A stretch of 64,000 bases of DNA from a virus (Duplodnaviria > Caudoviricetes), in the IMG/VR virus record IMGVR_UViG_3300011989_000257, positions 256,001-320,000 of that record; one strand, written 5' to 3'. Of this stretch, positions 15,507-15,597 are shown piece by piece. How positions within the stretch are numbered: position 1 is the first letter of the stretch; each line of letters begins with the position of its first letter. Both the position numbers and the translations under genes were made by a program. The notes below the pieces were generated by a model. It was given only the letters and a program-made list of their open reading frames with translations. It searched no databases and was not told the origin of the DNA.

Positions 15507-15597
15507 TGAGCATAGTGGGATTCGAACCCACGATAGACTCTCTCAAGTCTACGCTGGTTTTAGAGACCAGTGCCTTAAACCACTCAGCCATACGCCC
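15507..15597 (-). tRNA. amber suppressor tRNA (anticodon CTA), class II body
   Basis: CTGGT-CTCTAAA-ACCAG anticodon arm, long variable arm, G1:C72, A73. Confidence 0.85.

Follow-up and report, generated by a model that had tools for sequence, protein, structure and literature searches.

A conserved candidate amber suppressor tRNA with a serine-like body in five megaphage genomes using the standard genetic code

Amber suppressor tRNAs encoded by phages are commonly taken as signs of TAG-to-Gln recoding. TAG-recoded (code 15) phages of the gut include Lak, crAss-like, Garnet, Amethyst and Topaz phages (bioRxiv 10.1101/2021.08.26.457843; Peters et al., PMC9523058). For phages that differ from their host in genetic code, Borges et al. 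reported only TAG-to-Gln, and they described standard-code relatives that acquire suppressors as a step towards recoding (bioRxiv 10.1101/2021.08.26.457843). Orphan CUA tRNAs in standard-code jumbo phages are already known, namely in XacN1 of Xanthomonas, for which simulated read-through revealed no targets (PMC5852040), and in RsoM2USA of Ralstonia (PMC8504454). Two further systems are relevant to a suppressor with a serine-type body. E. coli supD, a tRNA-Ser amber suppressor, can be switched to Gln by variants of its acceptor helix (Rogers and Soll, in PMC9976931), and allo-tRNAs are serine-type nonsense or missense suppressors whose acceptor-T branch is 8/4 or 9/3 (Mukai et al., PMC5389517).

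The tRNA reported here belongs to an IMG/VR phage genome of 412,514 bp with a G+C content of 34.5% (labelled G000), bases 256001-320000 of which form the window, i.e. the whole stretch of 64,000 nucleotides that was analysed; positions refer to the window unless the genome is named. The host of the phage is of a Bacteroidota type. As in XacN1 and RsoM2USA, the CUA tRNA lies within a large tRNA set, the code is standard and TAG serves as a stop. Unlike in these two phages, the tRNA has a serine-type class II body, displays covariation across five uncultured Bacteroidota-type megaphages and is accompanied by a conserved in-frame UAG pair about 1 kb upstream, a candidate target. With the code 15 gut phages the present genome shares a phage-encoded CUA tRNA, a standard-code Bacteroidota-type host, the rarity of TAG among stops and an in-frame TAG that aligns with Gln; unlike theirs, the genomes examined here are not recoded and no release-factor gene was found. 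The new elements are the serine-derived architecture with a retooled acceptor end, its conservation with partial loss of the long arm, and an unchanged code across five genomes.

Anatomy and conservation of the CUA tRNA

ARAGORN reported 42 tRNA genes and one tmRNA, nearly all in the window on the minus strand. The CUA tRNA occupies positions 15507 to 15597 of this strand (91 nt, the CCA end not being encoded). ARAGORN places it at 15506-15597 (-), with a length of 92 nt and the anticodon cta, and the Rfam tRNA model RF00005 (gathering score 29) matches 15507-15597 (-) with 57.4 bits and an E value of 8.9e-10. On the minus strand, the acceptor stem GGGCGUA/UAUGCUC begins with the pairs G1:C72, G2.U71 and G3:C70 and is followed by the discriminator A73. 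The D arm, GCUG-AGUGGUUUAA-GGC, comes with U8, A14 and G18G19; the anticodon arm, CUGGU-CUCUAAA-ACCAG, carries CUA in a 7-nt loop with U33 and A37; the variable region of 22 nt folds into an 8-bp hairpin, and the T arm is GUGGG-UUCGAAU-CCCAC. The RF00005 cloverleaf and the conserved bases of a canonical elongator tRNA are all present, the acceptor-T branch is 7/5 and CUA at positions 34-36 is the single canonical register. A preliminary description of this DNA had noted a tRNA with the anticodon CTA, G1:C72, A73 and a long variable arm, which ARAGORN, Rfam and direct reading bear out. A gap of 5 nt separates the suppressor from an upstream tRNA-Met(CAU), identified by both ARAGORN and Rfam at 15603..15677 (-); the two lie side by side in G000 alone, the relatives having other tRNA neighbours.

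Four relatives were available for comparison. Three genomes of about 410 kb each (G001-G003) were reached via a 125-aa protein encoded next to the tRNA, 94% identical in all three, and a 295-kb relative with terminal repeats (G004) via a pattern of the 3' half of the tRNA. In IMG/VR, a pattern made of the T arm and the acceptor 3' strand retrieved only these four relatives. Each of them has exactly one CUA tRNA, in a syntenic location. The five orthologues measure 91, 91, 85, 76 and 76 nt, the two 76-nt forms being those of G002 and G003, in which the long variable arm is wholly lost. The anticodon CUA, the pair G2.U71, A73 and the T arm are invariant, and the acceptor stem is fixed save at pair 5:68, where A:U is once replaced by G.U. 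In the five-way alignment, variation in the D, anticodon and variable stems is compensated: over 29 pairs, 98.1% of the cells are paired and 6 pairs are altered on both sides, a result equalled by one of 500 shuffled controls. Judged from this alignment, the suppressor tRNA is real rather than a product of chance and is kept by selection. The long form is probably ancestral since it is found in the most divergent genome, G004. The 76-nt orthologues display G37, G38 and a C31.A39 mismatch, and may have a different or poor function.

Directly 3' of the suppressor, at 15372..15506 (-), lies a structured RNA of about 130 nt that is conserved in all five genomes and for which RNAalifold predicts 29 pairs, 6 of them with compensatory change. 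It contains GCAGCAA or GCAGUAA. No Rfam family, HDV-like ones included, matched it up to E = 10, and no P1 partner for a theta (HDV-like) ribozyme was found by eye. It could be a processing or regulatory element. That such an RNA abuts the 3' end of the tRNA speaks for a tRNA-shaped decoy or regulatory RNA that decodes nothing and would, for instance, lure an anticodon nuclease of the host or bind the phage Ro60-like protein. This reading is very unlikely in view of the full decoding anatomy (7/5 branch, U8, A14, G18G19, U33, A37 and UUCGAAU) and of an anticodon that stays invariant between covarying stems, the pattern expected for a triplet that is read.

Genetic code and in-frame TAG codons

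All five genomes use the standard code. Recoding was judged by the rule for genomes above 100 kb, i.e. a gain in coding density of 5% or more under code 15, together with the presence of many in-frame TAGs. Greedy ORF coverage of G000 amounts to 0.860 under code 11, 0.872 under code 15 and 0.868 under code 4, and the coding density of G004 to 0.828 under code 11 and 0.846 under code 15. The gain under code 15 is thus 1-2 points of coding density, and both this gain and the count of in-frame TAGs set the genomes apart from TAG-recoded, Lak-like ones. The comparison of codes 11 and 15 had been put forward as a check of an amber reassignment; with 0.86 against 0.87, G000 is not a code 15 genome of the Lak type. 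A link to Lak or other deposited phages was sought with a 594-aa protein of the window and gave no match, and the genome was also searched for Terminase_6C with no match.

Among the stops TAG is the rarest, yet an ordinary one, which terminates 8-11% of the genes across the five genomes. In each of G000-G003 it ends 39 to 48 confident genes (about 9-11%), including those of proteins of 560, 522, 429 and 412 aa, and in G004 28 of the 346 genes called. Within the window, the statements that several ORFs end at TAG and that the long ORFs are free of it hold: eight confident genes end in TAG, among them a tyrosyl-tRNA synthetase (TyrRS) gene and those of the 560- and 522-aa proteins, and no window gene requires TAG to be read as sense. 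The release-factor domain PF00472, as in a phage RF2, had no match in the genome while control genomes were matched. Six pairs of long ORFs joined by a TAG were considered as read-through genes and rejected; they are adjacent genes in which an ATG occurs 1-15 codons after the TAG, as in the TAA and TGA controls. Back-up stops within 3 codons are not enriched after TAG (29%, vs 34% for TAA and 39% for TGA), which argues against strong suppression. Since TAG ends about 9% of the phage genes without such back-up stops, read-through is probably modest or timed.

The same stops weigh on the idea of an anti-host weapon, in which read-through of UAG in the host would impair its proteins or its defence genes as the phage takes over. 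Such a broad reshaping of translation by the phage would fit its tmRNA and large tRNA set. The phage's own TAG-terminated genes, about 9% of the total and including those of TyrRS and of proteins of 520-560 aa, have no back-up stops and such a suppressor would harm the phage equally, which makes this explanation highly improbable.

In order to find TAG codons read as sense, TAG was translated as X, all ORFs were compared among the five genomes and codon usage of the coding type was required. The screen covered about 1.9 Mb and returned one convincing in-frame TAG in a conserved gene, at codon 31 of the kptA/Tpt1 RNA 2'-phosphotransferase gene of G000 (genome 70884-71423 (+), outside the window; L086:884-1423). 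The amber reassignment elsewhere in the genome that the preliminary description had proposed is not supported: there is no set of TAG-containing genes, and the code is standard throughout. Codon 31 is CAG (Gln) in full-length orthologues at 98% and 93% identity, CAT in G002 and AAT in G001, while G003 and G004 lack kptA. The corresponding column of the family is variable, with K 54, Q 14, H 13 and S 10 times, in addition to one Y and one L. An alignment of in-frame TAGs with Gln had been named beforehand as evidence against the insertion of Tyr, and the kptA codon does count against it in this sense. It is nevertheless weighed lightly because it is one private site, a single transition away from CAG, at a tolerant position of an accessory gene; the TAG may be a null allele. 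The gene also terminates in TAG, within a terminator-like hairpin. Bacterial relatives of this kptA, sought as a pointer to the host, gave no confirmed match.

These results bear on a pre-adaptation or insurance reading, according to which the suppressor has no dedicated target and makes nonsense mutations at a rare stop cheaper, as a first step to recoding along the route proposed by Borges et al. TAG is indeed the rarest stop, standard-code relatives of recoded phages are reported to gain suppressors before recoding (bioRxiv 10.1101/2021.08.26.457843), and the private CAG to TAG change in kptA would be consistent with an initial in-frame stop that is tolerated. Against it stands the accumulation of one in-frame TAG in five diverged genomes totalling about 1.9 Mb, a state that looks stable rather than transitional. 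The reading also treats the TAGs upstream of the tRNA, discussed below, as incidental or as conserved at the DNA level; taken as a whole it is unlikely.

Serine-type body, acceptor end and candidate amino acids

The origin of the tRNA was examined against 47 distinct reference tRNAs, drawn from the genomes of two Bacteroidota (one Pedobacter, one Aureicoccus). The full-length best match of every orthologue in this set is tRNA-Ser(UGA). The D arm of the suppressor is 100% identical to that of the Pedobacter tRNA-Ser(UGA) over 19 nt, and in the core (positions 8-46) the G001 copy is identical to the same tRNA at 34 of 39 positions, anticodon bases 34 and 35 being two of the differences. By these alignments the D arm, the anticodon stem and the variable hairpin are of the serine type, and the gene descends from a Bacteroidota-type tRNA-Ser body. 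The body had first been described as Tyr/Ser-like and class II; class II and serine-like it is, whereas tRNA-Tyr scores below tRNA-Ser for every orthologue.

The acceptor end does not follow the body. All reference and phage tRNA-Ser start with GGAG at the 5' end, and the suppressor with GGGC; G73 is found in the reference tRNA-Ser and most phage tRNA-Ser, and A73 in the suppressor. In bacterial tRNA-Ser, G1:C72 and G2:C71 are conserved and G73 is a serine determinant in vivo (PMC9976931). Instead of G2:C71 and G73, all five orthologues have G2.U71 and A73. As compared with tRNA-Ser, the acceptor end has lost its serine marks by three changes, G2:C71 to G.U, A3:U70 to G3:C70 and G73 to A73. 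Since G73 of tRNA-Ser is also an antideterminant for TyrRS and LeuRS (PMC9976931), the last change in addition removes the block against these two enzymes. A bacterial donor of the acceptor stem was sought with the pattern of the T arm and acceptor 3' strand in 185,579 prokaryote genomes, which yielded no useful tRNA.

This arrangement recalls supD, which likewise has a serine body with CUA and in which charging with Ser or with a different amino acid depends on the discriminator and on acceptor pairs one to three; an amber tRNA-Ser is turned into a Gln acceptor via changes at 1-72 and 3-70 (PMC9976931). Unlike the supD variants, the present tRNA is a natural phage gene in which G2.U71, G3:C70 and A73 are already fixed. 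With E. coli supF, a tRNA-Tyr amber suppressor, it shares the class II form, C34-U35-A36, A73 and G1:C72, but differs by the serine-type D arm, variable arm and anticodon stem, and by the two orthologues devoid of a long arm. Like the allo-tRNAs, some of which occur in phages, it is a natural long-armed serine-like tRNA with a non-serine anticodon. Unlike these, it has lost the serine acceptor determinants and retains a canonical branch: in place of an acceptor of 8-9 bp and a T stem of 3-4 bp, all orthologues have a fully paired 7/5 structure.

The phage also encodes a tRNA-Tyr(GUA), at 40154..40240 (-). The preliminary description had stated that its anticodon arm equals that of the suppressor except at position 34, which is true over 17 nt. 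The same 17-mer also occurs in CUA tRNAs of 73-77 nt from unrelated IMG/VR phages, so this identity carries little weight. An origin of the suppressor by duplication of the tRNA-Tyr was ruled out, as the D arm differs, the tRNA-Tyr has C1:G72 and the match is confined to the anticodon arm. Class II CUA tRNAs were sought in IMG/VR with the anticodon-arm 17-mer and with a combined pattern of the D loop and anticodon loop; all matches were class I tRNAs of 73-77 nt from unrelated phages, and the present tRNA is distinguished from them by its serine body and by G1:C72 in place of U1:A72.

Gln and Tyr are the leading candidates for the inserted residue, Gln being slightly ahead and each standing at clearly less than even odds. 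The reference for Gln-type amber suppressors, taken from code 15 systems, is a tRNA of class I in which the 1:72 pair is weak and which has G2:C71, G3:C70, G10, U35 and the discriminator of the host tRNA-Gln. G3:C70, G10, U35 and A73 of the suppressor match this type, while G1:C72 and G2.U71 do not; A73 is the discriminator of tRNA-Gln in Aureicoccus and in the phage's own tRNA-Gln. Tyr follows closely. A73 and U35 are the critical Tyr determinants (PMC9976931), and the suppressor combines A73, U35 and G1:C72 with a long arm (missing in two orthologues), with C34 replacing G34. Tyr is kept as a live option because A73, G1:C72, U35 and A36 fit the bacterial tyrosine set (PMC9976931); the reference Bacteroidota tRNA-Tyr likewise has G1:C72 and A73. 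The acceptor end as a whole matches reference tRNA-Tyr and tRNA-Gln at 10 of 15 positions each, a tie. Leu, Lys and the other residues, taken together, appear less probable still, and Ser is improbable.

Similar acceptor ends are found elsewhere in the lineage. The long tRNA-Gln(UUG) of G001-G003 has G2.U71, G3:C70, A73 and the D loop AGUGGUUUAA, all as in the suppressor, and the 95-nt tRNA-Leu(UAA) of G001 has the same top of the acceptor, GGGCG/..GCUC-A. G2.U71 was rejected as a marker of a single isotype, being present in 17 of 214 tRNAs across Arg, Gln, Glu and Leu.

The long variable arm had been among the features listed when Tyr (or Ser/Leu) was proposed, and in this lineage it is a weak guide to isotype because two orthologues measure 76 nt and because many class I tRNAs are long-armed. 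Lengths of 80-93 nt and a variable-arm hairpin are found in about 35 tRNAs whose anticodons belong to class I (Met, Trp, Lys, Cys, Asn, Gln, Thr, Arg, Pro, Glu, Val); in the window they include those at 19165-19246, 23971-24057, 27354-27436 and 31133-31216 (-), and many more occur in G001-G004. Many have a serine-type D arm and a Bacteroidota tRNA-Ser as best match, and short and long orthologues alternate. A serine scaffold thus seems to be the base from which this lineage makes new tRNAs. None of the tRNA-Ser, -Leu or -Tyr in the five genomes is shorter than 80 nt, and in its length behaviour the suppressor looks more like the long class I-anticodon tRNAs than like the true class II isotypes.

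A phage-encoded enzyme is a further reason to keep Tyr open. A full-length TyrRS of the bacterial type is encoded at 54064..55353 (-) (PF00579, 229 bits; TIGR00234 tyrS, 329 bits over residues 4-428). It is the sole aminoacyl-tRNA synthetase found with the family models tried, and its gene is present in all five genomes. This gene ends with TAG-xxx-TAA in G000 and with TAA in the four relatives. The preliminary description had combined the insertion of Tyr (or Ser/Leu) with an amber reassignment, of a different or conditional kind, that other parts of the genome would use. Its assets are the class II serine-type core, the match of A73, G1:C72, U35 and A36 to the Tyr determinants (PMC9976931) and this TyrRS. 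It is opposed by the lack of a set of TAG-containing genes in the genome or its four relatives, where the sole in-frame TAG aligns with Gln, by the two orthologues lacking the long arm vs at least 80 nt in the tRNA-Ser, -Leu and -Tyr of the lineage, by the long arms of many class I tRNAs and by the phage tRNA-Tyr genes of the lineage, which have C1:G72 or U1:A72 and never the G1:C72 of the suppressor. The combination is very unlikely; its Tyr part alone has the standing given above for that residue, and its reassignment part alone is scarcely credible.

The amber leader and the role of the suppressor

About 1 kb upstream of the suppressor on the same strand, a leader or N-terminal extension, MKKISFW-TAG-ICDQFW-TAG-LKLIRGP..., is encoded at 16554..16637 (-), with its TAGs at 16614-16616 and 16593-16595. 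It is in frame with an ORF of 125 aa at 16176..16553 (-), established by direct reading and matched by no Pfam family. The ATG of the next ORF, of 99 aa at 15877..16176 (-), overlaps the stop of the 125-aa ORF (TAATG), and the suppressor is next on the same strand. The 99-aa product is described as PTH2-like (peptidyl-tRNA hydrolase 2) on language-model features: its top match in the ESM Atlas reaches 0.95 with 231 of 256 features in common, and 30 of 30 matches fall in PTH2 sets, whereas Pfam gave no match even at E = 10.

G000, G001, G003 and G004 all retain the two leader TAGs, each following a TGG, and differ in the intervening codons. G002 has a different upstream sequence and yet retains an in-frame ATG and the second TAG, and a 3-nt insertion in G004 keeps the frame. 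Some 35 codons after the second TAG are open and, in G004, they contain no ATG, GTG or TTG up to a conserved AATATG. These four features speak for translation through the UAGs. No other conserved candidate client is known for the suppressor, and, with two counter-arguments taken into account, the odds that the leader UAGs gate translation of the operon are roughly even. The first is that conservation of the leader could act at the DNA level, because its repeated TTTTGGTAG is similar to the upstream part of the promoter consensus of this phage.

This recurrent promoter-like consensus consists of TTTGG(C/T)TATCTCA, a short spacer and TTTTTTCGTATCTTTGCA; it occurs at many intergenic sites, e.g. 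near 166348, 214952 and 240035 (-) of the G000 genome, and contains a TAnnTTTG of the Bacteroidota -7 type. Its in-frame translation gives the false appearance of conserved 'peptides' ahead of genes. The second counter-argument is that short leaders running from an ATG to a TAG show no genome-wide excess (15.3%, vs 15.3% for TGA and 11.8% for TAA). Two comparable arrangements occur outside the window: MERRNH-TAG lies directly before the ATG of a 197-aa gene at 395291 (-) of the G000 genome, in four genomes, and MM-TAG-Q... before a 92-aa ORF at 171469 (-), in three genomes. Both are probably due to chance.

The reading favoured here, with a probability of about 0.55, is that of a genuine amber suppressor maintained by selection under an unchanged code, which would permit limited read-through at very few sites, chiefly in the leader. 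A tRNA-Ser body acquired the CUA anticodon and lost the acceptor marks of serine. The product would be charged by a host enzyme or by the phage TyrRS, most likely with Gln or Tyr, and would compete with host RF1 so as to cause partial read-through of UAG. Its main dedicated use would be the passage of the two leader UAGs, allowing translation into the 125-aa ORF and the coupled PTH2-like gene, and tolerance of new nonsense mutations, such as the private CAG to TAG change in kptA, would be a by-product. The insurance reading draws some support from the leader, since TAG-gated leaders are not in genome-wide excess and TTTTGGTAG is promoter-like; it is opposed by the conservation of the leader TAGs, of the frame behind them and of an in-frame indel even in the 295-kb relative. 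In a more specific proposal, Tyr is inserted by way of host or phage TyrRS, which would recognize A73 and U35, and the two UAGs gate the PTH2-like operon in a self-contained circuit. This version is rather improbable; if true, it would be the first natural non-Gln decoding of amber by a phage, and the leader would be a stop-codon switch read by a phage-made tRNA.

Under the favoured reading, maintenance of a suppressor in at least five diverged megaphage genomes that keep TAG as a stop would represent a stable alternative to recoding. As a natural chimera of a serine body and a retooled acceptor end, this tRNA offers a test case for the rewriting of tRNA identity in nature and, likewise, for the purpose of orphan suppressor tRNAs in jumbo phages. 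If the leader UAGs are its true target, the locus would provide a simple example of gene control by read-through supplied in trans.
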